Shown piece by piece: positions 4,905 through 20,230 of a stretch of DNA of 54,830 bases (its first letter is position 1; every line of letters begins with the position of its first letter). A program made the translations under genes and the position numbers. The DNA comes from an uncultured Pseudomonadales bacterium (lineage in GTDB: Bacteria; Patescibacteriota; Microgenomatia; UBA1400; UBA12028): NCBI GenBank assembly GCA_964635905.1, contig CAZWPK010000004.1, positions 91,012 through 145,841 of the forward strand, given 5' to 3'. The notes under the pieces were generated by a model. The model was not told the origin of the DNA and made no database searches. It was given only the letters and a program-made list of their open reading frames with translations.

Positions 4905-4981
4905 CGGGGTGTGGCTCAGATGGCTAGAGCGCCTGCTTTGGGAGCAGGAGGTCCCCAGTTCGAGTCTGGGCACCCCGACCA
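4905..4981 (+). tRNA. tRNA-Pro(TGG)
   Basis: Acceptor CGGGGTG/CACCCCG, CCTGC-TTTGGGA-GCAGG, GTTCGAGT, ends ACCA. Confidence 0.97.
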
Positions 4982-6504
4982 TTTAAGACAAGTGGGTCTT
5001 TGAGCAGGGTATCAAAGGGTTCTTTTAGCCTGTACATCTTCACTTTTTCTTCATCAATCCATAAGTTCAAGAAAATAATTCTGACAATTTGGTCTTTGAC
5101 TTCGGGTGTGCCTGCTTTGACAGATAATCCAGCGTTTTTAGACAAGTTCAAGAAGTCTTCCAGCGTTAACACGTCCTGTTCTAGGTCAGGCATGGCTTCC
5201 TTGAGTTTGGTGATTTCTGCCTCCAGTTGGGACTTTTGATTGTCCAGTTCTTTCACTCGTTCCTCACCAATCTTTCTGACTGTCGAGCCTATTTCCTGCT
5301 TGATGACTTGGAGAGCGGTTGTTCGCAACTCATTGTCAGTAGCTTTCAGGTGTCCTTGCTTGGAGTGCAGTTCAACCTCAAGTTTGGCTTTCTGCTTAGT
5401 TAGCACGTCAGTCATTTCTTGCAGGTAAATTTGATAATCTTCCTCAGTGAAGTTGAGTCCATCCTTGAGAAACTCATACAACCAATCAAGCACAACTTTC
5501 ACTCTGACTGATTTCTTAGCTCGTTTGCACCCTGTGGTTTCACACCTGAAGTTAAGATACCGTTTGCCACTCCCACCAGTGGATGGACCAACAGTCATAT
5601 TGCCATCACAAAACGAACATTTTACAAAGGACTTAAAGGGGTAAAAAGTATAGCGGTGAGTGTTAATTGGCATCAGTCGAGTTCTAGTTTGGGTTTGGAT
5701 TTGGTAAAACTCTTCCTCACTGACCGCAGGTACAAAGTCATACTTGGTACGCAAATCAATCTGGTCATCAGCTTGTACCAATACACCAAAGTAAAACGAA
5801 TCTCGGAAGATGATACTCAAGATACGCTTGTCCATGTTCACTTTGCGTCCTGTAGCTTTAATCAAGCGGTGGTAGCCAAGAGAGTTGATTGTTTGGGCAA
5901 TTTTTTCCAGTGACTCACCTTTAAGCTTCATCTGCCATGCTTCCTTGATAAGTTCATGGTTATTACCATCAGGTTGATATCTACCAAACTCATCAATCAC
6001 ATATCCATGTTTAGGAATGTGACTCCTGCCTTCACTAGCTTTTCTGACCATCCCACGAGTCACGTCAGCAGAGAGTTTGTCTGAGTATTGTTTGGAAAGC
6101 ACAAAAGCAAGTCCCAGCATCATCAAACCATTTGCATCTCGAGTGAAGTGGTGAGTAACAAACTTTAAGTCCTTGATGATGTCCTCATCAATCATATCAA
6201 TGACTTCGCCACCTTCTTTCATGTTGCGAGCAAGGCGGTCAGGATTCCAGCACAGAATCCCATCGTATTTACCAACCTGAATATCTTTGAGCATCTGCCG
6301 AAAAACAGGTCTTTTACCAGGTTTCTTAGCGGACTTCTGTTCTGTCAGTGGAGAGCCAACAATGGTCAAATTGAGGCGTTTAGCAAGCTGGAGACACTCG
6401 GCTATTTGGTCAGGAATAGACCGAGCTTGACGCTCTGGGTCATCGGTAGATTTGCGAGCGTAGAGGACATATTTGAGCTTGGTGTGGTCAACTTCATACT
6501 CCAT
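4924..6504 (-). CDS. large serine recombinase 1 (526 aa in integrated state; last codons read antisense through tRNA-Pro)
   Basis: Resolvase catalytic YARKST..RQ..SI..Q, DRLARN, recombinase domain, Zn ribbon CSFC...CETTGC, coiled coil; ATG at 6504 matches paralog start. Confidence 0.95.
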   Translation of the reverse strand: MEYEVDHTKLKYVLYARKSTDDPERQARSIPDQIAECLQLAKRLNLTIVGSPLTEQKSAKKPGKRPVFRQMLKDIQVGKYDGILCWNPDRLARNMKEGGEVIDMIDEDIIKDLKFVTHHFTRDANGLMMLGLAFVLSKQYSDKLSADVTRGMVRKASEGRSHIPKHGYVIDEFGRYQPDGNNHELIKEAWQMKLKGESLEKIAQTINSLGYHRLIKATGRKVNMDKRILSIIFRDSFYFGVLVQADDQIDLRTKYDFVPAVSEEEFYQIQTQTRTRLMPINTHRYTFYPFKSFVKCSFCDGNMTVGPSTGGSGKRYLNFRCETTGCKRAKKSVRVKVVLDWLYEFLKDGLNFTEEDYQIYLQEMTDVLTKQKAKLEVELHSKQGHLKATDNELRTTALQVIKQEIGSTVRKIGEERVKELDNQKSQLEAEITKLKEAMPDLEQDVLTLEDFLNLSKNAGLSVKAGTPEVKDQIVRIIFLNLWIDEEKVKMYRLKEPFDTLLKDPLVLNGRGAQTRTGDLLLPKQAL

Positions 6505-6661
6505 CACACTCGATTATCCCACGAAAAAACAAAAACAGGAGTCCACACCATGCTTTTCCTGTACTCCAACCAGCCCCCCCTTGACCCGTTTCTGCCACAG
6601 CAGGGGTGGCACTACAAACTATCAAAACCTAACATTAACTAATATATAGAAAGAGCCTATA
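6505..6661 (-). promoter_or_regulatory. conserved 157-nt region upstream of LSR1 with two hairpins and a -10-like GATAAT
   Basis: Aligns by eye to 17208-17364; hairpins at 6594-6610 and 6536-6561. Confidence 0.55.
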
Positions 6662-6715
6662 GTATATGACTTTTGTGGTGATGTCACCGTACTCACTGCG
6701 TTATATAATACCTAC

Positions 6716-7162
6716 ATGGGAATCAACGAACGAACAGCCAATATTGACTTCTTGTCTTCTACATTTGATGACATACTCACAATGTATCCTGCTGAGTCAT
6801 TAAAGTTGATGTTCCGTGGTGCTAGAAATGACAACTCGCCTTCTGGTGGAAACTGGTGGTCTGAAGATGCCTATTATGCATTGGGTTGCAGCAGTGATAA
6901 CAGACTTTTTGTAACAGCTGTACCGATAGATTTAATTGCGGAGTTGCAAGAAACTAATCAACTGACTAATGAAAGCGACCACGAAGGAAACAAATGGAAA
7001 TTTAGAAGATTCAATTTACCTCATCGACAGGTTAATGATGCCGAACTGACTGAGTTACTTAGTCAAGCTCGTATAACTAAGCTAGGTGCAACGCGAGCTA
7101 TAAAAACCAGACTTGGAACACAGGCAAGAATTGATTTCTCAAAAAGTGTTATTGTCGGGTAA
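6716..7162 (+). CDS. cargo hypothetical protein, weak ADP-ribosyltransferase-like motifs
   Basis: 148-aa ORF; LMFRG...GNWWSEDAYYA pattern; no counterpart in element 2. Confidence 0.55.
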   Translation: MGINERTANIDFLSSTFDDILTMYPAESLKLMFRGARNDNSPSGGNWWSEDAYYALGCSSDNRLFVTAVPIDLIAELQETNQLTNESDHEGNKWKFRRFNLPHRQVNDAELTELLSQARITKLGATRAIKTRLGTQARIDFSKSVIVG

Positions 7163-7171
7163 ACGGCATGA

Positions 7172-7441
7172 CTACTGTTTTAACAGTTCAAACACCTTCT
7201 TCTTGATATACCTGAAAAAGGCTAAAAGCCGATTCTTCTTGAGTAAGACATACAGAATCTCACGTCCCTGACTGTCCCGCATTGCTATTGCATTTCTGAC
7301 ACCATCCTCACCGAGCTTCTGTTGCTCGTCTATAGCTTTGAGTGCCATCATGATATCAGCACGATTGGCATGAGGTCGTTTGAGCTGTTCTGTCAGTAAT
7401 CGCTTATTCAGTGCTAGGTCTTCTTCAAAGGAAAGTGCCAT
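7172..7441 (-). CDS. conserved small element protein (89 aa), candidate directionality factor/regulator
   Basis: 53 of 89 residues identical by manual alignment to 16424..16711; shared upstream GGTACAAT..CGGTCAAATTATG. Confidence 0.85.
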   Translation of the reverse strand: MALSFEEDLALNKRLLTEQLKRPHANRADIMMALKAIDEQQKLGEDGVRNAIAMRDSQGREILYVLLKKNRLLAFFRYIKKKVFELLKQ

Positions 7442-7479
7442 AATTTGACCGCTATTGTACCTTTTTTACCCGAGAAAGC

Positions 7480-7626
7480 CTAGTACAGGTACACCAACCC
7501 CGCATTGTTTTCACCACGAATGAAGTAGTCATCAGAGATATCCGATTGTGTAACAATTTGAAATGGCTTCCAAAATGCTACAATCGCATTGGCAAGGCGT
7601 TCAAAGTTTGTCGCCTTCACTCGACA
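7480..7626 (-). other. displaced C-terminal coding segment of LSR1 (CRVKATNFERLANAIVAFWK...GENNAGLVYLY*)
   Basis: Ungapped 48-codon match (21/48 identical) to 16239..16385; in frame with LSR1 across the GTCG core. Confidence 0.7.
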
Positions 7627-7660
7627 CATATCGCGTTCTTGAGAGCTTGTAAACAGCTCT
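7609..7660 (+). repeat. junction A: element-1 left arm + CGACAC core + cassette right arm
   Basis: 7609-7626 is the exact reverse complement of 16239-16256 (18 nt); 7622-7660 matches 8179-8217 at 34/39. Confidence 0.85.
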
Positions 7661-7697
7661 TGCTTCTTGTTTTTCTTCCTATAAAATATCCCTAATT

Positions 7698-8117
7698 ATG
7701 TCAAACGTTGAAGCAACTAAATCAAAGTTAGCTGGAAAACATTTCCTGGTGGTGGAAAGTGGCGATGCTGATTGGAAATTTGTATTTGGGAATTACTTTG
7801 ATGTAATGGATGCTACTTTCGACTATGTAGATGAAGAAGATTTTTTAGGATCAGGGATGGATGAGGTTGATACTTATGTAGGAAAATTTGATGGCATCGT
7901 CTTACATTTAGTAGCAGGTGGTTATTTCGATACTTATAAAGAAAAAGCTTTGGAAACAAAACTGAAAGGACTTCCAGTAGTTGTTACAGCATCAGCAACA
8001 TTTACGCCTGACGAAAAAGTAATTGAATTAAACTCACTGGGTATTGGAGTTGTAATAAAAGGCAAAGACTTTAACTTCAACTCAATTTTGGAATTGTTAG
8101 CTGCGCAGATGAGCTAA
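7698..8117 (+). CDS. stand-alone atypical receiver (CheY-like) protein
   Basis: FLVVE (b1), FDGIVLHL (b3, His at the Asp position), PVVVTAS (b4), VVIKGK (b5). Confidence 0.65.
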   Translation: MSNVEATKSKLAGKHFLVVESGDADWKFVFGNYFDVMDATFDYVDEEDFLGSGMDEVDTYVGKFDGIVLHLVAGGYFDTYKEKALETKLKGLPVVVTASATFTPDEKVIELNSLGIGVVIKGKDFNFNSILELLAAQMS

Positions 8118-8133
8118 AAACATAGCAACTTAT

Positions 8134-8217
8134 AGGATCATTGATCTGGAAGTGAGTTATTATTTCATTCCATAGATCCGACACATATTGTGTTTTTGAG
8201 AGTTTGTAAACAGCTTT
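8134..8217 (+). repeat. junction B: hairpin left arm shared with C + CGACAC + right arm shared with A
   Basis: 8134-8184 vs 8692-8742 = 46/51; 8179-8217 vs 7622-7660 = 34/39. Confidence 0.9.
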
Positions 8218-8284
8218 GAATTGCTGGTCGTAAATTCTTCTTCCCGACTTTAGTATACGGTAATATAATTGCTGGAGATGATAT

Positions 8285-8683
8285 ATGTCTGCAGAAAAAC
8301 CTGTTGTAGTACTTGTCGATAACAATAAGACTTATCTCGATACAGTGGCTTTGTTTTTTCAACAAACTGGTATGCATGTGGTTTGTTTTTTATCTGATCT
8401 GGGTAGCAATACAGAAGATTTGGTAGATCGGATACAAAAGAATAGTCCCGACATTGTTGTAACAGGTGTTCGTAATCGAATCGACAGAGATGATGGAGAT
8501 ATGAGTGGGATAGTATTGGCAAATGCTCTAAAATCCAAAGGTATTAAAGTTTTAGTAACATCTTCACCAGAATACCAAGGAATAGCTGAGCAAAATGGTT
8601 TACCTTTTATCGGAAAGCATCTTGGAGCACCTGAGTTTGTCAGTCATATTCAAGCACTTATAGGTCTATCCTTTAAATCATAA
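8285..8683 (+). CDS. stand-alone atypical receiver (CheY-like) protein
   Basis: VVLVDNN (b1), SPDIVVTGV (Gly at the Asp position), MSGIVLANALK, VLVTSS, FIGK. Confidence 0.75.
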   Translation: MSAEKPVVVLVDNNKTYLDTVALFFQQTGMHVVCFLSDLGSNTEDLVDRIQKNSPDIVVTGVRNRIDRDDGDMSGIVLANALKSKGIKVLVTSSPEYQGIAEQNGLPFIGKHLGAPEFVSHIQALIGLSFKS

Positions 8684-8691
8684 AATGCTAA

Positions 8692-8756
8692 AGGACTACT
8701 GATCTGGAAGTGAGTTACTATTTCATTCCATAGTTCCGACACTTTTGATATTCTTG
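8692..8756 (+). repeat. junction C: hairpin left arm + CGACAC + diverged right arm
   Basis: 46/51 to junction B left arm; TTCTTG at the same offset after the core as in junction A. Confidence 0.85.
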
Positions 8757-8903
8757 GAAAATCCTGTTAGATTTGACTACGATTACCATACGCTTATAAT
8801 CAGTGCTGACTCTCCTAACATACTAGAAGTAGTCAAGATGCCATTAATAAAGTGGTGATCAAAATACCAATTGTTCAAATTTTTGTTTAAGGAGATTTCT
8901 CAT

Positions 8904-9341
8904 ATGGGCCCAGTAGAACGTAGAGACGTCACAATTGTAGATACGAACGTTGACCCGAGACTGGCAGAGGTCACTCAGGTAACTATACTAGAACAACTCA
9001 ATGATCGTAAATTTCTTGAAGAACTAATTGCTCAAGGAAGAATTGTCTCTCACGAATTCGGACAGCAGGGGTGGGCAGCCGATATGCGACCTGTGTGCAG
9101 AGTGACGATCTCTCCTATTTCCGAACAACACTATTCTAGAAATGAGGAAGATAATCCTTATGATAGGAGTATCATCTGCGTAATAGTCGATGGAAAAAAA
9201 TATCCTTGCACTACATTCGTTGTCGATGAAGAAATTGGAACCTTTATTAGAGGCATGCTTAGAAGGCGACGTCTTTTGAAGCCTTTCAAAGAGTTTGCTT
9301 CGGGTCTGAAAGATGGACTGCGTTCTGCATTCCGAGGTTAA
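8904..9341 (+). CDS. hypothetical protein
   Basis: ORF 8871..9341; ATG 8904 preceded by AAGGAG. Confidence 0.65.
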   Translation: MGPVERRDVTIVDTNVDPRLAEVTQVTILEQLNDRKFLEELIAQGRIVSHEFGQQGWAADMRPVCRVTISPISEQHYSRNEEDNPYDRSIICVIVDGKKYPCTTFVVDEEIGTFIRGMLRRRRLLKPFKEFASGLKDGLRSAFRG

Positions 9342-9386
9342 CGGAATCATTGCAATTTTTAGGATTTGCAACGCTATACTACGAAA

Positions 9387-10073
9387 ATGGTAACCATTAT
9401 TCATGGTGATGATGAACTCAAAGTCCACCAAAACCTTTCTGCATTATTAAAGACCTACCGTGCGGATAACTTCACAATTGTTCGTTTAGATGCCAAAGGA
9501 CTATCAATCTCCGACTTAGAAACAGCAGTGGGAACTGAGGAGCTTTTTGCCGTAAAAAAAGTTGTCGTGATTGATCGAATTCATGCGCTGCCAAAAAGCA
9601 AGCAGAAAGATCTTCTTTTAAGTTGGCTCTCAGACTTTAAGTCTTCTACTACGGATGTGATTTTAGTCGAACATAAAATTCTTACTCCCACACAATTAAA
9701 AAAATTTCCAAGCGCTGATGTCAGATTATCTAAACTTCCCTCACTACTGTTTTCGTTTTTAGAGACGATTGGAACACAGCCAGCATACAAAAGTGTAACG
9801 CTGTTTCATCAGGTGCTAGAAAATCAGGAGCCAGAGCAAGTCTTTGTGATGATTATTCGTCAGTTTCGCTTGTTACTGCAATACAGTAGTGATGGAGTGT
9901 ATAACGGACCTCCATTTGGTCGATCAAAAATTCAAAAACAGTCGGATCGGATACCAAGAGAAAAACTTTTGCTGCTTTACAACCGACTACTACAAATCGA
10001 TTTGGGACAAAAAACCTCGACATCCGTCTTATCACTAACCCAAGAAATTGACCTTTTCCTGCTAGAGATCTAG
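9387..10073 (+). CDS. holA: DNA polymerase III delta subunit (short form)
   Basis: MVTIIHGDDE, EELFAVKKVVVID, IIRQFRLL, LLQIDLGQKTS; TATACT 6 nt before ATG. Confidence 0.8.
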   Translation: MVTIIHGDDELKVHQNLSALLKTYRADNFTIVRLDAKGLSISDLETAVGTEELFAVKKVVVIDRIHALPKSKQKDLLLSWLSDFKSSTTDVILVEHKILTPTQLKKFPSADVRLSKLPSLLFSFLETIGTQPAYKSVTLFHQVLENQEPEQVFVMIIRQFRLLLQYSSDGVYNGPPFGRSKIQKQSDRIPREKLLLLYNRLLQIDLGQKTSTSVLSLTQEIDLFLLEI

Positions 10074-10175
10074 AATCGAGAAGTGTTTCTTACGCAGTTC
10101 TTAATTTAAATAGTGCACAATAGTTTCGGTTGTGGTTGATGATCAGTCATCTATCCGTCTATACAAGGAGGCAGC

Positions 10176-11591
10176 ATGCAAGTTGTTCCAGTTCCATCAG
10201 TGATTTTTCGTGGATACGATATCCGCGGAGTAGCAGGGAGTGAATTATCAGAGGATGTGTACTATACCCTGGGACGCGCATACGCCACGTTTTTAACGCA
10301 GCGACGAATTAAAGAAGCAAGTGTCGGTCGAGATAATCGTCTGACAAGTGAAGTGTACGCAAAAGCCTTTATTCAAGGTCTCAATGAAGGTGGAATCGAT
10401 ACCATCGACATGGGCTTGTCTCTCTCTCAAATTGTCTATTATTCTTCCTATGAATTCAAAACGAAGGGAAGTGCGATGGTGACTGCTTCCCATAATCCCA
10501 AAGAGTATAACGGACTTAAGCTTGGTGTTGGGTATTCCGATACCATGATCACGGAAGAGATTGCTTACATGAAAGATCTCTGTGACAAAGGAGAATTTTC
10601 TACGGGCAGTGGTACGAACCGCAGTGTGGATGTCTACCCATCCTACAAAGAAACAGTCCTTAAACTATTTTCTTTGAAGAAAGCCTGGAAGGTCGTCGTC
10701 GATACCTGTAACACAACCTCCGGGAAGTTTTATCCCGACTTACTGCGATCCGCCGGATGTGAAGTCATTGAACAAAATACAACCTTGGATGGCAACTTCC
10801 CCCTAGGTGTTCCGGATCCAACAGAGGTAGAAGTCCTTGAACGACTTGCAACGGGTGTAAAAAATGCTGGGGCTGATATTGGTTTTGCCTATGATACCGA
10901 TGGTGACCGAATGGCCGTCGTCGATGATAAAGGGAACACTTTGTGGATGGACTCCATTGTGGCACTTTTTTCAAAAGATGTCTTGGACTTCATGCCAAAG
11001 GCTCCGATTGTCTACAACACGCTCTGTTCTCGTCAAGTCACGGAAGCGATTGAAAAAGCTGGTGGAACACCAGTGATGTGGATGACCGGTCATTCGTTTA
11101 TCAAAGCGAAGATTAAAGAAGTACGCTCTCCCTTTGGAGGGGAATTGTCTGGCCACATTTTCTTCATGGATAACTTCTTTGGACATGATGATGGGGCCTA
11201 TGCGAGTTTGCGACTCCTTCAATATTTGGAACGAAAGAATCAAACCTTGAGTGCAGCAGTCAGTGAACTTTCGATCTACGTCAGTAGTCCGGAGATCAAA
11301 TTTGGATTGGCAGACGACATCAAGTTCAAATTTATCGATACCGTGATCAAAGCTGAATTTGAGAAGCGATGGCCGGATGGTAAGTACACCACCATTGATG
11401 GGGTTAGAGTAGATCTAGCTGATCAAATGGCAATTGTTCGTGCCTCCCAGAATGGACCCTACATTACGGTCAAGTTTGAGGGGAAAACACAAGAAATCTA
11501 TGATGCCTTAAAGAAAGAATTAAAAGCGATTTTATCCGCTCATAGTGAAATTGACTGGTCAAAGGGTGTGAATACGCACGCCTTAGATTAA
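10176..11591 (+). CDS. phosphomannomutase/phosphoglucomutase
   Basis: IFRGYDIRG, TASHNP, AYDTDGDR, GGELSGH. Confidence 0.95.
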   Translation: MQVVPVPSVIFRGYDIRGVAGSELSEDVYYTLGRAYATFLTQRRIKEASVGRDNRLTSEVYAKAFIQGLNEGGIDTIDMGLSLSQIVYYSSYEFKTKGSAMVTASHNPKEYNGLKLGVGYSDTMITEEIAYMKDLCDKGEFSTGSGTNRSVDVYPSYKETVLKLFSLKKAWKVVVDTCNTTSGKFYPDLLRSAGCEVIEQNTTLDGNFPLGVPDPTEVEVLERLATGVKNAGADIGFAYDTDGDRMAVVDDKGNTLWMDSIVALFSKDVLDFMPKAPIVYNTLCSRQVTEAIEKAGGTPVMWMTGHSFIKAKIKEVRSPFGGELSGHIFFMDNFFGHDDGAYASLRLLQYLERKNQTLSAAVSELSIYVSSPEIKFGLADDIKFKFIDTVIKAEFEKRWPDGKYTTIDGVRVDLADQMAIVRASQNGPYITVKFEGKTQEIYDALKKELKAILSAHSEIDWSKGVNTHALD

Positions 11592-11654
11592 GGGAACCGA
11601 AGACAGATGGCTCCTGTACACGGTCCTCTTGTAGGATCGTGTACAATTGGACCT

Positions 11655-12926
11655 ATGGACAAACCAACAATCCTCATCTTGGCTGGGGGAGAGAATAGCC
11701 GCTTTTTTCCATTAAATACCACGACGCATAAAGGTGCCCTGACACTACTGGGAAAACCGTTAGTTATTCGTACGCTGGAGAACTTAGAAAAGCACGGATT
11801 TCCCCATGTCGTCATGATTGTCTCGAAGAAAGATTTTGATGGGAATGGACTGTCGGGATTTATTAAAGAATTTGACTTTAAACTGAAAATTGATTTTGTG
11901 CTTCAGCCAGATGCTCAGGGAATGGGAAATGCAGTGCTGTGTGCTAAAGACAAGATCAAAGGCTCCTTTGGAGTTGTTTTCCCCTCATCGTTAGATGCAG
12001 GGGAGCTTATGGAAACGTTGATGAAACAGGCAGGAAACGGTGGAAGTCTTGCGGTTCGCTATACCCAAGAGCCTTGGCTGTATGGAATCGTCACCCTCGA
12101 TGGTCAACACATTACCTCGATTGTGGAGAAACCAACAAAAGGGACGGAACCCTCCAACCTTATGGCAACCGGTGTCTATTATCTTTCCCATGAATTCTTA
12201 GAATTCTTGCAGGTCGCACCACAGACACAATACAACTTTGAAGAAAGTCTGGACAAGTTTGTTCAAGTGTATACCGTCACTGCAGTGGAACAATCGCACA
12301 CGTTGCCGTCGCTCAAATACCCTTGGCATCTCTTTGCGTTTCAACAGGTGCTTTTTGCTGACCTTCCCAATTATATTTCTCCCTATGCAACGGTTGCCAA
12401 GACTGCAGTCATCGATGCGAAGAATGGACCCGTCTATATTGAGAATGGAGCGACCATTGGCCATGCCGTAAAGATCGTCGGTCCTGCCTATATTGGAAAA
12501 GATGTGTTCATCGGTGATTTCTCATTGATTCGACACTCCTCCTTTGAGCAAGGTTCTTCGGTTGGAGTCCATTCGGATGTGACCCGATCCATCATCATGG
12601 AAGATTCGTCCATGCACAATGGTTTCCTAGGAGATTCCATTGTGGGTCGCGATGTGCAGATTGGAGCCGGGCTGATTACTTCGAACAAGCGCATGGATCG
12701 AGCCCCTATTGAAGTTGTGGTCAAAGGTAATAAAGTAGCTAGCCGTTTAACCGGACTTGGAACCGTGATTGGTGATCATGCCAAAGTTGGAGTACGGGTT
12801 ACCATCATGCCGGGAAAATTTGTAGGATGTCGAGCAATTGTGTACCCGGGCATAACGGTGTGGGAACATGTCCCTCATGACCATCGTGTAAAATCCCCGC
12901 AGACTATTGAATTGGTGGAACGATAA
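11655..12926 (+). CDS. sugar-phosphate nucleotidyltransferase with hexapeptide-repeat C-terminus (GlmU-like, archaeal-type architecture)
   Basis: ILAGGENSRFFP, HKG, VEKP, left-handed beta-helix repeats, GTVIGDHAKVG; ATG 11655 after TACAAT. Confidence 0.85.
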   Translation: MDKPTILILAGGENSRFFPLNTTTHKGALTLLGKPLVIRTLENLEKHGFPHVVMIVSKKDFDGNGLSGFIKEFDFKLKIDFVLQPDAQGMGNAVLCAKDKIKGSFGVVFPSSLDAGELMETLMKQAGNGGSLAVRYTQEPWLYGIVTLDGQHITSIVEKPTKGTEPSNLMATGVYYLSHEFLEFLQVAPQTQYNFEESLDKFVQVYTVTAVEQSHTLPSLKYPWHLFAFQQVLFADLPNYISPYATVAKTAVIDAKNGPVYIENGATIGHAVKIVGPAYIGKDVFIGDFSLIRHSSFEQGSSVGVHSDVTRSIIMEDSSMHNGFLGDSIVGRDVQIGAGLITSNKRMDRAPIEVVVKGNKVASRLTGLGTVIGDHAKVGVRVTIMPGKFVGCRAIVYPGITVWEHVPHDHRVKSPQTIELVER

Positions 12927-12929
12927 TCT

Positions 12930-13727
12930 ATGGTTGATCCAACATCTGCAAAAGCTTTCCTCTTTGACGTGGACAAAACATTAACGAACTCCTCTCGAGA
13001 ATGTACGCCTGCAACCCAAGCAGCCATAAAAAAATTGCGAAGTCTGGGGAAAAAGGTGGGAGTGTGTACCGGTCGACACTACACGACCTTACATCAAGAG
13101 ATTTTACCCTTGTTTGAACCAACTGACATCCATGTCGTATCCGGAGGGGCACAAGTCATTTCAACGGATGGAATCGTAGTGTGGGAGCAATGTATTCCCC
13201 GAGCTACTGTCGATCAGCTTCTTCGTTCGCTCGATGGTCGTGCCACAAGAATTTACGTTCAAGAGGGGACGTCGATCTATGGAAACGCTCAAGCGATTGC
13301 CGAGTGGAAGATCGTGATCGGAGCGAAACACCAGCTATATATTAAACCGCTCTCAGAGCTTCCAGCCGTAGACATACCCATTATCGTGGTGCATGAGATC
13401 GATGAAACGGTCTTTAATTCCATCGTAGAGCATCCAGATTTAAATGCGAAATACATGCAAAATTACACTGGAAAGTATTATGCAGACATCACTGCAGCCG
13501 GTGTAAGTAAAGAAACGGGAGTTCGTGAATGGTGTACACGTCAGAATGTATCCCCAACTGAAGTCGTTGGTTTTGGTGATAGTGCAAATGACATCGAGTT
13601 TCTAACAATGGTCGGCTTCGGTGTGGCAATGGGAAATGCTACCGAGGACGTAAAAAAGATTGCACAAGAAGTCACCTTGACGCTGGATGAGGATGGGATT
13701 GCTGCTTGGGTAAATGCCCATTTCTAA
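12930..13727 (+). CDS. Cof-type HAD hydrolase
   Basis: FDVDKTL, CTGR, GVSKETG, GFGDSANDIEFL. Confidence 0.92.
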   Translation: MVDPTSAKAFLFDVDKTLTNSSRECTPATQAAIKKLRSLGKKVGVCTGRHYTTLHQEILPLFEPTDIHVVSGGAQVISTDGIVVWEQCIPRATVDQLLRSLDGRATRIYVQEGTSIYGNAQAIAEWKIVIGAKHQLYIKPLSELPAVDIPIIVVHEIDETVFNSIVEHPDLNAKYMQNYTGKYYADITAAGVSKETGVREWCTRQNVSPTEVVGFGDSANDIEFLTMVGFGVAMGNATEDVKKIAQEVTLTLDEDGIAAWVNAHF

Positions 13728-13763
13728 GGTATTTTAAGTGAAGATTACAGTTGAAAGGAAATT

Positions 13764-14843
13764 ATGTCGACGATTCTAGATTCTCGTGATGAGTTACAAA
13801 AAAATGATCCAAAATTTGCCATTCGCTCGCTGGAGCAACTGGGTAGCCAGGTAAAGCAAATCTGGGAACTCACTTCAGCGTTGCAATTGGATACCTCGTA
13901 CTCATCGATAAAAAATGTGGTTGTCGCTGGTATGGGAGGATCTGCATACGGCACACATGTGATCACCACCGTATTTAAAGAACAATTATCAGTCCCAGTG
14001 ACGGTAGTTCCCGATTACACGGTACCCGCCTATGTCGGTCAGGATACTTTAGTGATTGTGTCCAGTTATTCTGGCTCCAGTGAAGAAACCTTAGCTGCAG
14101 CAGAGGATGCCCGAACTAAGGGAGCTAAGATTATCGGTCTGACTTCTGGTGGTAAATTAGGCGCCTGGTTAACTGAACATTCCTTTCCATTGATTCAATT
14201 TGATGGAAGTTTTAATCCCTGCGGAGTAGCCCGATTCGGGTACGGTTATTCGCTCTTTGGTCAGATGGCAATTTTTGCAAAAGTTGGTCTAATCACGATA
14301 AAGCAATCCGACGTTGATGCCATTCTAGCAGTAATCGCAGATGCGCAATTACGCTGTAGCGCTGATATCCCACAAGATGACAATGAGGCAAAATTATTGG
14401 CATTTGAACTAGTACAGCGCGCCCCTGTATTTACAGTGGCAGAGCATCTGGAAGGGATTGCACATGTGGTTGCCAATGCGATGAATGAAAATGCTAAAAC
14501 GTATTCGGAGTATCGCAGCATCCCAGAACTCAATCACCATCTCTTAGAGGGATTTCAATTTCCACAAACGAATGAACAACACTATCTTTTTCTCACCACG
14601 CTATCTTCCCGATATGCAAAGTCAAACCAACATCGAATGGAACTAACGCAAGAGGTGTTAGAAAAGCATCATATTGAATGGAAAGAACTTCCGGTAAACG
14701 GGAAATCAAAACTAGAAGAAGTCTTTTCCTATTTAATGGTCGGTGTCTATGCATCCTATTATTTGGCGGCTCTCTTGCAGGTAGACCCTGCGGGAACCCC
14801 AGAAGTAGAATGGTTTAAGAAGGAGTTGGCAGCAAAGGTATGA
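13764..14843 (+). CDS. bifunctional phosphoglucose/phosphomannose isomerase (SIS fold)
   Basis: VVAGMGGSAYG, VSSYSGSSEET, TSGGKL, ENAK, PELNHH. Confidence 0.9.
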   Translation: MSTILDSRDELQKNDPKFAIRSLEQLGSQVKQIWELTSALQLDTSYSSIKNVVVAGMGGSAYGTHVITTVFKEQLSVPVTVVPDYTVPAYVGQDTLVIVSSYSGSSEETLAAAEDARTKGAKIIGLTSGGKLGAWLTEHSFPLIQFDGSFNPCGVARFGYGYSLFGQMAIFAKVGLITIKQSDVDAILAVIADAQLRCSADIPQDDNEAKLLAFELVQRAPVFTVAEHLEGIAHVVANAMNENAKTYSEYRSIPELNHHLLEGFQFPQTNEQHYLFLTTLSSRYAKSNQHRMELTQEVLEKHHIEWKELPVNGKSKLEEVFSYLMVGVYASYYLAALLQVDPAGTPEVEWFKKELAAKV

Positions 14844-16012
14844 TCCTACGTCCCTATTTCATCGTTCCCAAATTGATTCCGCAACCAACCTGGGGAGGAG
14901 ACTACATTCGTACCTATAAAGGGATCGCTGATTCCCAAGTGACTAGTCAGCTTATTGGTCAGTCCTATGAGTTAAGTGTGGATTCCATGCTGTCTGAGGG
15001 CCTAGATTCAGCCGTAGTGCCGGTGGAGCTGGGTGATCCAAAAACAGGGAATACGACGAGATTGATAGGGAATGCCGATCAACTTTTTTCATTGCAATCG
15101 CTCATTGATCAGAATCCCGAGGAAACCTTAGGAGCCAAGTCGGTTCAAGTCCATGGAAAACGAATGAATGTCTTAATAAAGTTTACACAGGCTAAAGGAA
15201 ATTCGTTTCAAGTTCACGTGATCCCTGGGAAGGAATTTGGTCATTGGAAACCCAAACCTGAAAGTTGGTATTACTTTGAGCCTGGAAAAGCAACGGTGGG
15301 GTTGCACCAACCCACACTTGAAAGACTCGCTTCATACAAGAATGCTTGCGAAAAGATCGCCCAGTTTGCAGAGCAGATGCAGGAGGAAGTAGCAAGTAAA
15401 AACAAATCGATTGATGCAGCGAAGAAACTGCTTTTGGAACTTGTTTCTACCGAAAATCCATGGCAATACGTCAATGAAGTGATGGTAGAGAAAGGGGCAG
15501 TGATCGATCTATCCGGCGGCGGAATCCATCATTCCTGGGAAGAAGGGGAGTCTATTCCGCTAGGGAATGTCGTGTATGAAGTGCAAGTTAATGTCATGGA
15601 TAACGAGTGCACGATTCGCTCCTTTGATAAGGGAAAAATTGGTTCGGATGGAACTGTTCGTCCAGTTCACATACATGACTATTTCACCGCTCTTAATACC
15701 GATCCTAGCCACAACCAAGTCTCAAAAATTCTGCAACAACCGGAGACTAGGGATGATGATGGCGCGCAGCATACGGATTTGTTTTCAACTCCCTATTATT
15801 CAAGTAAAGAGATCGCGTTTTCGGGAACATATCATGGAACTACGAACACCAGTTTCCACCATGTGTTTGTGAAAGAAGGCAGCCTCCAATGCAAATCAGG
15901 AGAAACCTCGTTACAAGCTGCAAAGGGAAGCTCTTTGTTTATTCCAGCTGAAGTTACTGACTACTCTCTTCTCTCAGATTCAGCCACTGAAGTGATAATC
16001 ACTTCAGTCTAG
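14840..16012 (+). CDS. class I mannose-6-phosphate isomerase-like cupin protein
   Basis: PTWGG, QSYELS, LIKF...SFQVH, KPESWY, GGIHH, YEVQ. Confidence 0.75.
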   Translation: MILRPYFIVPKLIPQPTWGGDYIRTYKGIADSQVTSQLIGQSYELSVDSMLSEGLDSAVVPVELGDPKTGNTTRLIGNADQLFSLQSLIDQNPEETLGAKSVQVHGKRMNVLIKFTQAKGNSFQVHVIPGKEFGHWKPKPESWYYFEPGKATVGLHQPTLERLASYKNACEKIAQFAEQMQEEVASKNKSIDAAKKLLLELVSTENPWQYVNEVMVEKGAVIDLSGGGIHHSWEEGESIPLGNVVYEVQVNVMDNECTIRSFDKGKIGSDGTVRPVHIHDYFTALNTDPSHNQVSKILQQPETRDDDGAQHTDLFSTPYYSSKEIAFSGTYHGTTNTSFHHVFVKEGSLQCKSGETSLQAAKGSSLFIPAEVTDYSLLSDSATEVIITSV

Positions 16013-16204
16013 TCTGATTTTATTGAAGGTACTTTTTTACAACGAACGAAGTTCTTGGGAATAGGGTTGATTCTCTTCTTCTTCTTCTTCTTTGCCAGAT
16101 CGAAGAATACAATCTCACGGGCTGAAAGTGCTTTCTTATTACTGCTCTATATTATTTTTGTCTGTTTTGAGATTGTGTTTGTACTGTAGCAAGAACTAAA
16201 AAGT

Positions 16205-16271
16205 GAGAGGATGTTTATGCCCTCGAAAGCGTGCTCTATGTCGAGTGAAGGCGACAGACCTTGAACGCCTT
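16205..16271 (-). repeat. junction D: element-2 left arm + CGAC core + diverged cassette-type right arm
   Basis: Minus strand AAGGCG-N12-CGCCTT-CACT-CGACA followed by GAGGGCATAAACATCCTC, similar to GAGAGCTTGTAAACAGCTC of junction A. Confidence 0.75.
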
Positions 16272-16385
16272 ACAGAAGTGATTTTAGCACGCTGGCAGAG
16301 AGTCGAGTTCACTATTCCCGAATTGATGAATACTGATAACTTCACTCATGGTGAAAATAAGATAGGGCTATCGTATGTGTACTAG
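16239..16385 (+). other. displaced C-terminal coding segment of LSR2 (CRVKATDLERLTEVILARW...GENKIGLSYVY*)
   Basis: Ungapped homolog of 7480..7626; the Met of copy 1 is CTA here; in frame with LSR2 across GTCG. Confidence 0.7.
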
Positions 16386-16423
16386 GATTACTCGACGGAA
16401 ACGGGTACAATGACGGTCAAATT

Positions 16424-16711
16424 ATGCCATCCACACCAGAGGAGAGACTAGCTGAAAACAAGCGATTATTACAGGAGATGCTCAAGAATCCTAAGTATCA
16501 GCGGGCGGAACTTGTCGAAGCACTCAAAGCCGTAAACGAGGAACAAGCTCTCGGTGTCGATGCTGTCCGTAACGCGATAGCCATGCGTAATGCGAAAGGA
16601 CAAGAGATTTTGTATATGCTCCTCAAGAAAAACCGAGTCCTCACCCTTTTCCATAAGATAAAGAAGTGGGTCTTTGAACTAGTGTATAATATGCCTATTA
16701 AATCAAAATAA
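16424..16711 (+). CDS. conserved small element protein (95 aa), candidate directionality factor/regulator
   Basis: Paralog of 7172..7441 (NKRLL, ALKA, VRNAIAMR, EILY.LLKKNR). Confidence 0.85.
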   Translation: MPSTPEERLAENKRLLQEMLKNPKYQRAELVEALKAVNEEQALGVDAVRNAIAMRNAKGQEILYMLLKKNRVLTLFHKIKKWVFELVYNMPIKSK

Positions 16712-16720
16712 GGAGCCAAT

Positions 16721-17173
16721 ATGTCAGAAATCCTTTCAGATTTTGGTAAAGAAGCAAATGAGACACCCAAAGTGACAGCAGATGCTCAACCGCAACCAGC
16801 TACAATTTCTCCAAATAGATTGCAGAGCATTGCAGACTTGATGGCTCAACCTGCTGAATCTACGGATACTCCTGTTGCGAAGACTGAGACACCGAAAGCA
16901 GAAATCTCTGAAGTTTTAGTTCTCAAGCAAGGTTTGAATGCTGTCATAATGCCTGAACTTAGAGACGTATTTAAAGACGAGAGATTTGGTGACTCATTTG
17001 GTGACGTGAGTGCAGAGGTTGCAAGAGATAGGCTCCAAAAGTTTCTTGATGAAATCCAAAAACAAGGTGGTAAAGTCCTTTCTACTGTTAGCCAAATGAC
17101 CAATGAAAATCCTAGTGAAATGAATGGTGATGACCCAAAGCTGACTACGTTCTTTATAGTAGAAAAATCGTAA
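16721..17173 (+). CDS. cargo hypothetical protein
   Basis: 150-aa ORF with AGGAG ribosome-binding site; Pro/Ala/Thr-rich N-terminus. Confidence 0.7.
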   Translation: MSEILSDFGKEANETPKVTADAQPQPATISPNRLQSIADLMAQPAESTDTPVAKTETPKAEISEVLVLKQGLNAVIMPELRDVFKDERFGDSFGDVSAEVARDRLQKFLDEIQKQGGKVLSTVSQMTNENPSEMNGDDPKLTTFFIVEKS

Positions 17174-17207
17174 AGACTTACGCTAAAGTAGGTAGCATCT
17201 TTTATGT

Positions 17208-17364
17208 TATAGGGCTACATTCTCCTGTTAGGTATTGTTAGATGTTTGAAGTCTCTAGCCCTACCCCTCTTGTGGCTAAAACACCCTAAACCAGTGGCTT
17301 TTGCTATAGGAAGAGCGTGGTGTGCATACCTGATTTTGTTTTTCCTAGTAGTACAATCAGCGGT
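17208..17364 (+). promoter_or_regulatory. conserved 157-nt region upstream of LSR2 with hairpins and -10 TACAAT
   Basis: Aligns to 6505-6661; TACAAT 17352-17357, 7 nt before ATG. Confidence 0.55.
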
Positions 17365-18945
17365 ATGGATTACGAAGTGGATACCTCCAAACTCAAATAC
17401 GTCATGTATGTCCGTAAGAGTACCGATGACCCAGAGCGCCAAGCTCGCTCCATCCCCGACCAGATTGCGGAGTGCCAGGAGCTCGCTAAACGCCTCAATC
17501 TTACTATCGTTGGGAGGCCTATTGAGGAGACCAAATCAGCCAAGAAACCTGGGAAGCGTCCATTGTTTCGGCAGATGCTTAGAGACCTGACGGCTGGTAA
17601 ATATGACGGTATCCTTTGTTGGAATCCTGACCGCCTGGCCCGAAATATGCGTGAGGGTGGTGAAGTCATCGACATGATTGATGAAGACATCATCAAGGAC
17701 TTAAAGTTTGTAACACACCACTTCACCAAGGATGCAAACGGCTTGATGCTTCTGGGACTTGCCTTTGTCCTCTCCAAGCAATACAGCGACAAATTATCAC
17801 AAGACGTGACTCGTGGGATGGTCCGTAAAGCCAGTGAAGGTCGAAGCCATATACCCAAGCATGGATATGTCATTGATGACAACGGGAGATATCAGCCAGA
17901 TGGACCGAACTTTGACCTCATCAGACAGGCCTGGCAGATGAAATTACACGGTGAGCCACTCGAAAAGATTTCCAATACTATCAATGGTCTTGGGTATCAT
18001 CGCCTCATCAAGTCCACAGGTCGTAAGGTCAATATGGACAAGAGAATCTTGAGTGAATTATTCCATGACTCCTTCTACTTTGGGATGTTGGAGCAAGCGA
18101 GTGAGACGGTTGACCTGCGCACCAAATATGACTTTGTTCCTGCTGTGACCGAGCAAGAGTATGCTCAAGTCCAAGCTCTGACCAGAAGCCGTATCATCCC
18201 ACTCGTCTCACATCGCTTTACCTTCTACCCATTCAAGACGTTTGTTCGCTGTGCATTCTGTGACAACAATATGACTGTTGGTCCTTCGACTGGGAGTACA
18301 GGCAAACGGTACTTAAACTTTCGCTGTGAGACTCCAGAGTGCAAACGTATCAAGAAATCTGTACGGGTAAAAGTAGTCCTCGATTGGTTGTATGCGTTTC
18401 TCGCTGGTGGACTCAACTTCACCGAGGCAGATTACAAACAATATCTAGAGGAGATGACAGATGTCATTACCAAGCAACGAGCGACGCTTGAAGGTGAACT
18501 GCACGCCAAACAAGGATTACTCAAGACGACTGATGCCGAACTCAGGACCACTGCCCTCCAAGTCATCAAACAAGAAGAAGATTCAACTGTCAGACGTATC
18601 GGTGAGGAGCACGTCAAGGAACTGGAGCAACAGAAAGCGCAGCTAGAGACAGAGATTGCCTCTATCAAACAGACCATGCCTGATGTTGCACAGGATGCAC
18701 TTACCTTAGAAGATTTCTTGAACTTGTCAAAGAATGCGGCAGAATCAGTCAAAGCAGGCACTCCAGAAGTCAAAGACCAAATTGTCAGAATTATCTTCTT
18801 GAACTTATGGATTGATGAAGAAAAAGTAACGAAATATCAGGCTAAAGAGCCGTTTCATTCCCTGCTTGCTAACAGGCAACTACCTACTAGTCGGGGTGAC
18901 TGGACTCGAACCAGCGACCTCTTGCACCCCATGCAAGCGCGCTAG
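17365..18945 (+). CDS. large serine recombinase 2 (526 aa in integrated state; tail read antisense through tRNA-Pro(GGG))
   Basis: YVRKST catalytic motif, CAFC...CETPEC Zn ribbon; roughly 75-80% identical to LSR1 by eye, same length. Confidence 0.95.
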   Translation: MDYEVDTSKLKYVMYVRKSTDDPERQARSIPDQIAECQELAKRLNLTIVGRPIEETKSAKKPGKRPLFRQMLRDLTAGKYDGILCWNPDRLARNMREGGEVIDMIDEDIIKDLKFVTHHFTKDANGLMLLGLAFVLSKQYSDKLSQDVTRGMVRKASEGRSHIPKHGYVIDDNGRYQPDGPNFDLIRQAWQMKLHGEPLEKISNTINGLGYHRLIKSTGRKVNMDKRILSELFHDSFYFGMLEQASETVDLRTKYDFVPAVTEQEYAQVQALTRSRIIPLVSHRFTFYPFKTFVRCAFCDNNMTVGPSTGSTGKRYLNFRCETPECKRIKKSVRVKVVLDWLYAFLAGGLNFTEADYKQYLEEMTDVITKQRATLEGELHAKQGLLKTTDAELRTTALQVIKQEEDSTVRRIGEEHVKELEQQKAQLETEIASIKQTMPDVAQDALTLEDFLNLSKNAAESVKAGTPEVKDQIVRIIFLNLWIDEEKVTKYQAKEPFHSLLANRQLPTSRGDWTRTSDLLHPMQAR

Positions 18946-18964
18946 CCAACTGCGCTACACCCCG
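18891..18964 (-). tRNA. tRNA-Pro(GGG)
   Basis: Minus strand CGGGGTG/CACCCCG, CTTGC-ATGGGGT-GCAAG, GTTCGAGT; CCA not encoded. Confidence 0.96.
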
Positions 18965-19138
18965 AAAGGACAAGAACTAGTAGTATACCGCAACTTTCTT
19001 GAAATATCTTTGCTTTTTCTTGAGTACTCATTGAATCTATTCATTCTATTACAATCTCCTTTTTGACAAATGTTTCTAAGTATGTTTCTATGATCCAAAG
19101 GCAACCCAAAACCCAATCCGTTTACTAGAAAGGAATTT

Positions 19139-20230
19139 ATGTCCCCAGCACCTCAAACACGCCCGCAAGCAGCTATTCCTCAAAACGACCGCAGTGAGCG
19201 TTTAGAAGCGGTCAGAATTGCCATGCAGCAGATCGAAAAGCAGTATGGCAAGGGATCCATCATGAAACTAGGGGAGCAAATGAGTACACAGGAAAACATT
19301 CCTGTTGTTTCTTCTGGTTCCATTGCTTTAGATTTGGCACTTGGAGTTGGGGGATTTGCCCGAGGGAGAATTGTGGAGATCTATGGACCCGAAGCCTCAG
19401 GGAAAACCACTGTCTGTTTACATGCGATTGCCGAAGTGCAAAAACAAGGTGGAACTGCCGCGTTCGTTGATGCTGAACACGCTATGGATCCTAGTCGCGC
19501 CAAGGTTATCGGTGTCGATTTGGACAAATTGTTGATTTCTCAACCAGATAATGGAGAACAAGCATTGGAAATTACCGAAATGCTGATCCGTTCCGGTGGT
19601 GTAGATATCGTCGTTGTGGACTCTGTTGCTGCGTTGACGCCCAAAGCAGAAATTGAAGGTGAAATGGGAGATGCAGTCATGGGTGCACAAGCACGGTTAA
19701 TGTCACAAGCGATGCGGAAGCTGACATCGGCTGTCAATAAAAGTAAAACATTGTTGATCTTTACCAATCAGATCCGTATGAAGATCGGTGTCATGTTTGG
19801 TAACCCGGAAACGACAACTGGTGGACAAGCCTTGAAGTTCTATGCTTCTGTACGTATTGATATGCGAAAGATTGGAAATATCACCGAAGCAGAAACGGTA
19901 GTGGGTGGACGACACCGAGCCAAGGTCGTCAAAAATAAATTAGCACCACCATTTAGAGTCGCAGAATTCGACATTATGAATGTGGGTGGAATATCGAAAA
20001 GTGGTGGGATTATTGACGTTGCCACGGAACTGGGTATTCTCCAAAAGAGTGGAAGTTTCTATAAATATAAAGACAAAACGTTGGCTCAAGGGCGTGAAGC
20101 ACTGAAAGCTGAGTTGGAAACGAACACAGGCTTAATGACAGAACTGGATACGCAAATTCGACAGCGTATTAAAGATGGCAAAGCATCTGCGCCAATTGAG
20201 ATTAAAGAATCAGAGGACGCAGAAGAATAA
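19139..20230 (+). CDS. recA: recombinase A
   Basis: [44 protein letters not shown]. Confidence 0.99.

Follow-up and report, generated by a model that had tools for sequence, protein, structure and literature searches.

Integrase genes that are altered by the integration event they catalyse have been described for tyrosine recombinases. In the Myxococcus phage Mx8 (~50 kb) attP lies inside the integrase coding sequence, and integration creates a recombinant gene with a new 3′ end, so that the enzyme (IntP/IntX) is not inactivated but altered (PMC6070905). In the SSV1-type ‘suicidal’ integrases of archaeal viruses and plasmids the split separates the N-terminal part from the catalytic domain and leaves two pseudogenes; related copies in inverted orientation occur in one genome, and such recombinases were described as exclusive to archaea (PMC8371274). 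Genomic islands of the Islander type insert at the 3′ end of a tRNA gene and leave the tRNA functional; they use tyrosine integrases and carry a duplicated tRNA 3′ fragment, and the 2014 Islander paper states explicitly that tRNA genes are targets of tyrosine integrases only. For the large serine integrases (phiC31, Bxb1, A118/LI, SPbeta SprA) the att sites are short, and the ZD motif lies 5 bp further out in attP than in attB (PMC3783163).

Here we analysed a 54,830-nt window (contig CAZWPK010000004.1 of assembly GCA_964635905.1, positions 91,012 to 145,841), in which a sequence-only reading had proposed two independent large serine recombinase (LSR) genes, each split by insertion at a tRNA-Pro gene. 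In literature searches limited to open-access papers we found no description of an LSR whose attP lies inside its own ORF, or of LSR-tRNA elements in Patescibacteria.

A split serine integrase gene at tRNA-Pro(GGG)

All factual elements of the sequence-only reading were confirmed. The tRNA-Pro(GGG) gene was located by ARAGORN at 18890-18964 on the minus strand, and Rfam matched the full-length tRNA model at 18891-18964. The LSR2 gene (17365-18945, plus strand) reads ACT AGT CGG GGT into the antisense tRNA and ends with RGDWTRTSDLLHPMQAR followed by the TAG at 18943-18945, which is the complement of the D-loop CTA. On the far side of the element the sequence TGT CGA GTG AAG starts at 16239, and the frame stays open up to the TAG at 16383-16385. 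This orphan C-terminal tail (16239-16385, plus strand) consists of the junction codon followed by 47 codons (RVKATDLERL...GLSYVY). Both ends share the core GTCG (16240-16243, the attL junction, and 18890-18893, the attR junction) in the same codon phase, and joining at the core gives a protein of 556 aa with the junction at residue 509/510. One correction concerns the start codon: the program-made list of ORFs starts LSR2 at GTG 17317 (542 aa), while alignment with homologues supports ATG 17365 (526 aa integrated, 556 aa fused), the numbering used in the sequence-only reading.

The twin element E1 (4905-7625, minus strand) at tRNA-Pro(TGG) (4905-4981, plus strand) gives the same numbers. LSR1 (6504-4924) stops at the equivalent TAG (4924-4926), the cores are at 4976-4979 and 7622-7625, and the orphan tail occupies 7623-7480. 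The two copies are homologous exactly from core to core, with unrelated cargo between. A random position and frame in the window is open for 47 codons in 22% of trials, and the right phase has a probability of 1/3; against that, the two tails are homologous at the protein level, and the in-phase arrangement recurs in related elements as described below.

LSR2 was confirmed to carry an N-terminal resolvase-type catalytic domain (PF00239, E 2.7e-23, above its cut-off). Catalytic Ser19 in the YVRKSTDD motif is invariant across 20 homologues, as are the four zinc-ribbon cysteines (Cys296, 299, 321 and 326). The hits for PF07508 and PF13408 fall below their cut-offs in the window protein, though both families are on record for homologues. 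In the AF2 model long helices span residues 354-464 and the predicted fold ends near residue 502; Foldseek aligns about 540 columns of the model to the SPbeta, phiC31 and Bxb1 integrases (E from 1e-21 to 1e-14). Sequence search of the PDB reaches only the catalytic domain. The crossover thus falls after the last folded element, and the integrated 526-aa isoform, made of 509 native residues and 17 residues read from the antisense tRNA-Pro, keeps the canonical domains in one ORF. In this respect it differs from the SSV-type integrases. The resemblance to Mx8 is functional only, as the enzyme here is a serine recombinase with simple ~50-bp sites and a 4-bp core, found in elements of 2.6-7 kb with no phage genes.

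Related elements with in-phase tails

The sequence-only reading would have been contradicted if homologous LSR-tRNA overlaps generally lacked an in-phase distal tail. Among the related elements surveyed, 16 of 16 have the tail in phase, 2.6-6.9 kb upstream. A tail HMM, even after iteration, did not reach family members below about 43% identity; a search guided by core, motif offset and phase found seven further in-phase tails in more distant members, although this search is less rigorous because no out-of-phase control was counted. The tail is also homologous to the C-termini of five contiguous LSR+tail proteins (P0040, P0065, P0066, P0109 and P0117). Where the context of contiguous proteins was resolved (2 of 5, loci L003 and L108), they span the junction of two elements sitting in tandem. 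Notably, for tandem arrays to arise by site-specific recombination a hybrid site would have to be used, which canonical LSRs do not do; co-integrate circles formed by homologous recombination are an alternative. In addition, 42 clusters of short stand-alone ORFs in a library of 1.84 billion proteins end in the tail motif, and these probably are orphan tails called as genes.

The tRNA-Pro sub-clade (isoacceptors GGG, TGG and CGG), which the sequence-only reading had taken as a specialised clade, belongs to a much larger Patescibacteria family. About 40 of 49 wider family members (30-68% identity) stop inside antisense tRNAs of 11 amino-acid types; besides tRNA-Pro these are tRNA-Leu, Lys, Met, Ser, Ile, Val, Asp, Ala, His and Gln. 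As to the cross-talk between the two copies that had been suggested as possible, there is only indirect support that the enzymes do not discriminate isoacceptors. LSR1 (at TGG) is 90% identical to the homologue P0002, whose antisense-tRNA end (..THPM..) reads through a GGG anticodon, and the enzymes of loci L004 (GGG) and L005 (TGG) are closer to each other (81.5%) than to enzymes at the same isoacceptor elsewhere.

The attachment site within the integrase gene

Positions 16240-18893 make a 2.65-kb integrative element whose attP lies inside the LSR reading frame. The P arm together with the tRNA-side core (18860-18893, plus strand) codes for LSR residues about 499-510, and the P′ arm (16240-16270, plus strand) is embedded in tail codons 1-10. 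The target attB is the extreme 3′ end of the tRNA-Pro gene; the core corresponds to tRNA positions 71-74, and the acceptor and T arm form the B′ arm. The B arm of the pre-insertion attB lies in the host flank (16207-16239, minus strand), the former tRNA-Pro(GGG) trailer, where homology with the twin drops and where TTTCGAG is found about 16 nt from the core, read outward. The predicted attP junction reads ...CTACCTACTA-GTCG-AGTGAAGGCGACAG... and the predicted empty attB reads ...GCGTGCTCTAT-GTCG-GGGTGACTGGACTCG...

In 14 of 14 GTCG-core elements the tail-side arm carries [CT]TTGAAC (CTTGAAC in LSR2) at offset 21 from the core, against offset 16 for the tRNA T-arm motif. This in silico result equals the 5-bp attP/attB shift described for serine integrases (PMC3783163). 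The P arm, however, shows only weak symmetry with the P′ arm. In contrast to the Islander-type islands, only 4 bp are shared between the two ends and no tRNA fragment is duplicated; the far-side sequence resembles the tRNA arm only through the shifted motif. Island finders that rely on direct repeats would probably miss these elements.

Integration leaves the tRNA intact, separates the last 47 codons of the LSR gene from the body and places them 2.65 kb away at the other end of the element. Excision, or a tandem neighbour, restores the 556-aa form. We consider this explanation well supported, although neither an excised circle nor an empty attB was found in the sequences searched. A metagenome scan for the conserved P′ arm returned three hits, all integrated attL junctions. 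The short contigs encoding contiguous proteins (loci L001, L002 and L107) have no terminal overlap and no tRNA, so they are fragments rather than demonstrable circles. Exact-protein look-ups of the flanking RecA and of the 390-aa upstream protein found only contigs of the same strain, which either carry the element or break near the junction. We infer that the break at about 18825 coincides with a 32-nt exact repeat shared with E1 and is therefore an assembly effect, not evidence of excision.

Possible role of the detachable tail

Among four elements the P′ arm codons show 90-97% nucleotide identity and no synonymous change (dS = 0), whereas codons 11-47 show dN/dS of 0.19-0.65. The tail is conserved in length and motif (LE..L...I...W....F....Y.Y), and we infer that it is a functional peptide whose presence or absence marks whether the element is free or integrated. 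What it does is unknown; a role in tuning the activity, site choice or directionality of the enzyme, as the C-terminal swap does for Mx8 IntP/IntX, appears most likely to us, though at about an even chance. Nothing here shows that the two isoforms differ in activity. Nor has a degradation role been shown for this tail. AF2 predicts the tail with very low confidence (pLDDT ~33, one short helix), and it evolves fast (55-64% nucleotide identity among close relatives). More speculatively, and in our view rather unlikely though not excluded, the tail may be a self-encoded state sensor that takes over part of the role of a directionality factor: the full-length enzyme from the free circle would be tuned for integration, while the tail-less enzyme from the integrated copy would have a different site preference or direction (locked, or competent for attL x attR or for hybrid sites, which would explain the tandem arrays). 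The DNA rearrangement would then rewrite the recombinase that catalyses it, across a Patescibacteria-wide family targeting at least 11 kinds of tRNA gene.

It remains possible, though we think it less likely than not, that the split is real but has no regulatory meaning, with attP in a 2.6-kb element simply overlapping the 3′ end of the only large gene to save space and the tail being a dispensable, loosely constrained extension. The predicted disorder of the tail, its fast divergence (dN/dS up to 0.65 in some pairs) and the fact that its best-conserved part is the DNA-level P′ arm agree with this view; the antisense-tRNA endings, varying from 2 to 19 residues, look incidental. Still, the tail runs about 110 nt beyond the ~30-bp P′ arm, and it keeps a length of 43-51 aa and the W/F/Y.Y motif in elements of 2.6 to 6.9 kb, where space is not limiting, and in enzymes only 35-50% identical that target different tRNAs. 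All pairwise dN/dS estimates for the distal codons are below 1.

That the tail is an independent small gene, in phase with the LSR by coincidence, is very improbable. Gene callers do annotate such ORFs (the window has a 60-aa ORF at 16203-16385, and the stand-alone clusters mentioned above exist), but the consistent phase in the 16 surveyed elements contradicts this reading, the homology begins exactly at the core and not at any start codon, the upstream parts of these ORFs are unrelated host flank, and the same peptide is the true C-terminus of contiguous LSRs. We also consider it unlikely that the two copies are immobile or domesticated remnants, possibly serving to invert the ~11-kb segment between them. 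The copies are indeed inverted relative to each other and share near-identical P′ arms, some relatives carry fragmented LSR genes (loci L011, L031 and L057), and, as noted, no circle or empty site was found. However, both window LSRs are intact and both tails are open, the cargo differs between copies and among relatives, the same family occupies many different tRNA genes and forms tandem arrays, and LSR relationships cut across isoacceptors, which implies recent movement.

The finding of a large, diverse family of serine integrases landing on the last four nucleotides of tRNA genes bears on the view that tRNA genes are targets of tyrosine integrases only. A bacterial serine-recombinase version of a split integrase, in which only an accessory tail is exchanged, offers a natural experiment that could show how C-terminal extensions affect the directionality of enzymes widely used for genome engineering.

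Other genes and flanking signals

The only gene besides the LSR shared by all elements of the clade is a conserved small ORF (16424-16711, plus strand, 95 aa; 7441-7172 in E1), a candidate accessory or directionality factor. Its two protein families, F3 and F1, are found in all elements, and their comparison by hhalign gave a probability of 76% (E 2e-5). No recognisable directionality factor is present. The ORF at 16721-17173 (plus strand, 150 aa) is variable cargo of unknown function, not homologous to the cargo of the twin (6716-7162, plus strand). Pfam searches with the tail, the small ORF and both window cargo ORFs gave no significant match (one sub-threshold hit for the small ORF, E 0.05). 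Larger relatives carry RVT_1, SMODS, Trypsin_2, DUF3644 or Prim-Pol genes but no capsid genes, relatives carry defence-type cargo, and a scan of IMG/VR returned only distant LSRs at 31% identity or less over most of the protein. At 2.65 kb these elements may be among the smallest self-integrating units, which bears on how ultra-small Patescibacteria genomes exchange genes.

Upstream of the LSR start a conserved non-coding block (17238-17364, plus strand), with 62-69% identity to the twin in an otherwise unalignable region, is a possible promoter or operator; a promoter scan found fewer sigma-70-like sites than in shuffled controls. Rfam finds nothing in the element except the tRNAs. In the circle the small ORF lies 38 nt downstream of the full-length LSR and, we infer, could be co-transcribed with it. 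Interestingly, terminator-like hairpins lie on both host flanks, on the tRNA strand: a hairpin plus T-run at 16207-16224, now separated from its tRNA by the element, and a displaced hairpin plus T-run at 7642-7660 (plus strand), downstream of the former tRNA-Pro(TGG) trailer on the host flank of E1. We infer that after integration the tRNA has lost its terminator-like hairpin and is transcribed convergently into the LSR 3′ end.

Two integrated copies at tRNA-Pro genes

The tRNA-Pro(GGG) gene was placed by ARAGORN at 18890-18964 on the minus strand and the tRNA-Pro(TGG) gene at 4905-4981 on the plus strand; Rfam matches the complete tRNA model at both. A long ORF on the plus strand, LSR2, reads ...CTA CCT ACT AGT CGG GGT GAC... 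into the antisense tRNA-Pro(GGG) and ends ...RGDWTRTSDLLHPMQAR* at 18945, the stop being the complement of the D-loop CTA. Alignment with homologues places the start at ATG 17365, giving 526 aa. At 16239 the sequence TGT CGA GTG AAG opens a frame that runs to the TAG at 16383-16385. Both places contain GTCG (16240-16243 and 18890-18893) in the same codon phase, and joining them gives a 556-aa protein with the junction at residue 509/510. The copy at tRNA-Pro(TGG), element E1, behaves in the same way: LSR1 spans 6504-4924 on the minus strand, its cores lie at 4976-4979 and 7622-7625, its tail ends at 7480 and the fused product is again 556 aa. All factual statements of the sequence-only reading, which had described a second split recombinase gene with a tail in the same phase and a fused product of the same length, are correct.

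When aligned in the LSR orientation, the two copies are homologous from GTCG to GTCG, and the similarity collapses outside the cores. The middle cargo is unrelated (16721-17173 in one copy, 6716-7162 on the opposite strand in the other). A non-coding block upstream of both LSR starts (17238-17364 and 6540-6632) is conserved, with 62-69% identity; in E1 it includes an inverted repeat, TGCCAC-N7-GTGGCA, at 6593-6611. This block may be a promoter or operator, and the short minus-strand ORFs called here (75-78 aa) are probably spurious. The 3′ parts of LSR2 and LSR1 share exact repeats of 29 and 32 nt (18766-18827 versus 5042-5103), the second of which ends where short-read contigs of the same strain break; that break could be mistaken for a structural polymorphism.

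Each host flank on the far side carries a hairpin followed by a T-run on the strand of the tRNA (16207-16224, minus strand, and 7642-7660, plus strand), which is what one expects of the tRNA's own terminator before a 2.65-kb insertion pushed it away. The core corresponds to tRNA positions 71-74, so the tRNA body is untouched. No excised circle or empty site was recovered, so mobility of the elements is inferred from comparative evidence.

The tail belongs to the recombinase

A search with the fused protein returned 755 relatives at E <= 1e-10. Most of them are 509-530 aa long and end just after a conserved ..SRG with peptides such as RTRTSDL..PKxAL or RGAGN. These peptides read as translations of antisense tRNA and, for the surveyed loci, the ORF does end inside an antisense tRNA. 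Five relatives are longer (552-569 aa) and continue into a tail that aligns with the two orphan tails, with motif [RT]xxAxxLE..L...I...W....F....Y.Y.

Two of these five proteins sit on long contigs, and both turn out to be in tandem arrays with the layout host flank, GTCG, orphan tail A, LSR_A, GTCG, tail B, LSR_B, GTCG, tRNA-Pro. One locus (L003, positions 7116-15178) is at tRNA-Pro(CGG); the other (L108, positions 6701-19359) is at a tRNA-Pro(GGG) next to recA, the same neighbourhood as in the window. In both, LSR_A is contiguous with the tail of element B, which is exactly what an intact attP between two elements predicts. If the arrays formed by site-specific recombination, a hybrid site must have served as target, which canonical serine integrases do not do but which would fit an altered specificity; integration of co-integrate circles formed by homologous recombination is an alternative. 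Another of the contiguous LSR+tail proteins (P0040) lies inside a larger element with Replic_Relax, DUF87 ATPase, methyltransferase and HTH genes and with no tRNA nearby (L109-L111, the loci of this protein). The family may therefore also occur on plasmid-like or conjugative elements in the unsplit state.

Survey of related loci

A scan of one genome per species returned 80 loci. Most record titles name Patescibacteria lineages, while several of the closest relatives (L004, L005, L009, L012, L013, L050 and L057) are labelled Pseudomonadales or Gammaproteobacteria; these labels look doubtful, and the host assignment rests on the labels of related MAGs. A profile of the tails finds a same-strand orphan tail upstream of the tRNA's 3′ end in 13 of the 80 loci, covering almost all those above about 43% identity (the exception, L012, is a contig truncated at the LSR). 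With the two window copies and the two L003 elements this gives 16 elements of 2.65-6.9 kb. When anchored on the shared core (GTCG for tRNA-Pro; AGTGC or TGGTGG for two tRNA-Leu cases), 16 of 16 tails are in the same phase as the LSR. In this window a random frame is open for 47 codons 22% of the time, and the phase adds a factor of 1/3; chance is therefore excluded. In three loci (L011, L031 and L057) the LSR reading frame is broken into two or more pieces, and L031 holds remnants of a second copy; some integrated elements are therefore decaying.

In 49 more loosely related loci (30-68% identity), about 40 LSR ORFs stop inside an antisense tRNA, the tRNAs being Pro, Leu, Lys, Met, Ser, Ile, Val, Asp, Ala, His and Gln. 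A search guided by core, motif offset and phase found 45-50-codon in-phase tails in seven of these loci, though this is weaker evidence, as the search had no out-of-phase control. In a library of 1.84 billion representative proteins the tail profile hits 42 clusters (P0121-P0162), all of them short stand-alone ORFs of 41-159 aa, in most of which the match runs to or near the C-terminus. These are most likely orphan tails, fused to host flank, that gene callers have annotated as genes.

Attachment sites

In every element with a GTCG core, the tail-side (P′) arm carries [CT]TTGAAC at offset 21 from the core, while the tRNA (B′) arm carries the T-arm sequence xT[CT]GAAC at offset 16. A distal zinc-ribbon-domain motif shifted 5 bp outward in attP relative to attB is the published hallmark of serine integrases (PMC3783163). 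Notably, the first ten tail codons are 90-97% identical at the nucleotide level among four elements, with no synonymous change, whereas codons 11-47 are 55-64% identical, with dN/dS 0.19-0.65 where dS could be estimated. The start of the tail is therefore constrained as DNA and the rest as protein, though loosely. The P arm overlaps the codons for the conserved ..LLK.. stretch and shows T-rich, TTGAA-like sequences at roughly the mirror position, but the symmetry is weak. In the B arm, the host flanks of both window copies carry TTCGAG or CTTGAG about 16-17 nt from the core.

Domains and predicted structure of the recombinase

Pfam finds the resolvase domain (E 2.7e-23), and Ser19 and four zinc-ribbon cysteines are invariant. 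An AlphaFold model (mean pLDDT 75) shows the usual order: catalytic domain, recombinase domain, zinc ribbon with a long coiled coil, a last beta-hairpin at 478-493 and a helix at 497-502. Residues 505-556 have pLDDT of about 33, with one short helix at 517-525. Foldseek aligns about 540 columns to the SPbeta, phiC31 and Bxb1 integrases (E 1e-21 to 1e-14), while sequence search reaches solved LSRs only through the catalytic domain. The crossover at residue 509 therefore falls just after the canonical fold as modelled, and the integrated isoform is a complete LSR without its accessory tail.

Gene content of the elements

Besides the LSR, the only gene shared by all elements is a 75-110-aa ORF with core motif LVxALxxVD...N.TSI.D.NGGRI. 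In the circular map it always lies next to the LSR, immediately after the tail in most elements and just upstream of the LSR in loci L009 and L048. The window's version (16424-16711 on the plus strand and 7441-7172 on the minus strand) is probably homologous to the version in other elements (hhalign probability 76%, E 2e-5). It has no significant Pfam match and is a candidate cofactor or directionality factor.

The cargo varies. The window copies carry unknown 148-150-aa ORFs, while larger relatives (loci L008, L009, L010, L011, L048 and L108) carry a reverse transcriptase (RVT_1), a SMODS nucleotidyltransferase, a trypsin-like peptidase, DUF3644 and DUF5677 proteins and a Prim-Pol primase. 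This cargo looks like anti-phage defence or replication functions; we saw no virion genes, and IMG/VR holds only distant relatives. These are minimal integrative elements, some of them with defence-like or replication cargo.

Consequences of integration

From sequence and comparison, the attP site is intragenic. Integration at the tRNA 3′ end exchanges the last 47 residues of the enzyme for 17 residues of antisense-tRNA translation, and restoring attP restores the 556-aa ORF. We infer that the tail has a function and that its loss reports the integrated state; by analogy with Mx8, the recombinant integrase would remain active but altered (PMC6070905). We favour an effect on activity, site choice or directionality, though only as about an even chance. 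In the inferred circle the small ORF lies 38 nt after the full-length LSR and may be co-transcribed with it. After integration, tRNA transcription is inferred to lack its terminator-like hairpin and to converge on the LSR 3′ end; it may thus read antisense into the LSR genes, which could dampen LSR expression.

Comparison with known systems

Integrase genes that cross attP are known for tyrosine recombinases, namely Mx8 and the SSV-type 'suicidal' integrases, the latter called exclusive to archaea in one review. The Islander paper notes both cases and states that serine integrases were not known to target tRNA genes. We found no report of an LSR with an intragenic attP or of these Patescibacteria elements in full-text searches, though these covered open-access papers only and absence is not proof. 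By the sequence and structure-model features tested in silico, the enzyme described here is a bona fide LSR; it has an Mx8-like gene-splitting layout and an unusual target class.

Use of tRNA-Pro isoacceptors

The P′ arms of the two copies differ at 2 of 30 positions, and the two tRNA arms share the core, the GGGGTG stretch and the TCGAAC motif. As the two copies are in inverted orientation, recombination between them would invert the intervening ~11 kb, though this remains speculation. Interestingly, LSR relationships do not follow isoacceptors. LSR1 (at TGG) is 90% identical to P0002, a relative whose ending reads through a GGG anticodon, and the enzymes of loci L004 (GGG) and L005 (TGG) are 81.5% identical to each other but 69-76% identical to the window enzymes. 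This indirectly supports enzymes that accept any tRNA-Pro end, as proposed in the sequence-only reading, and implies recent switching between isoacceptor genes.
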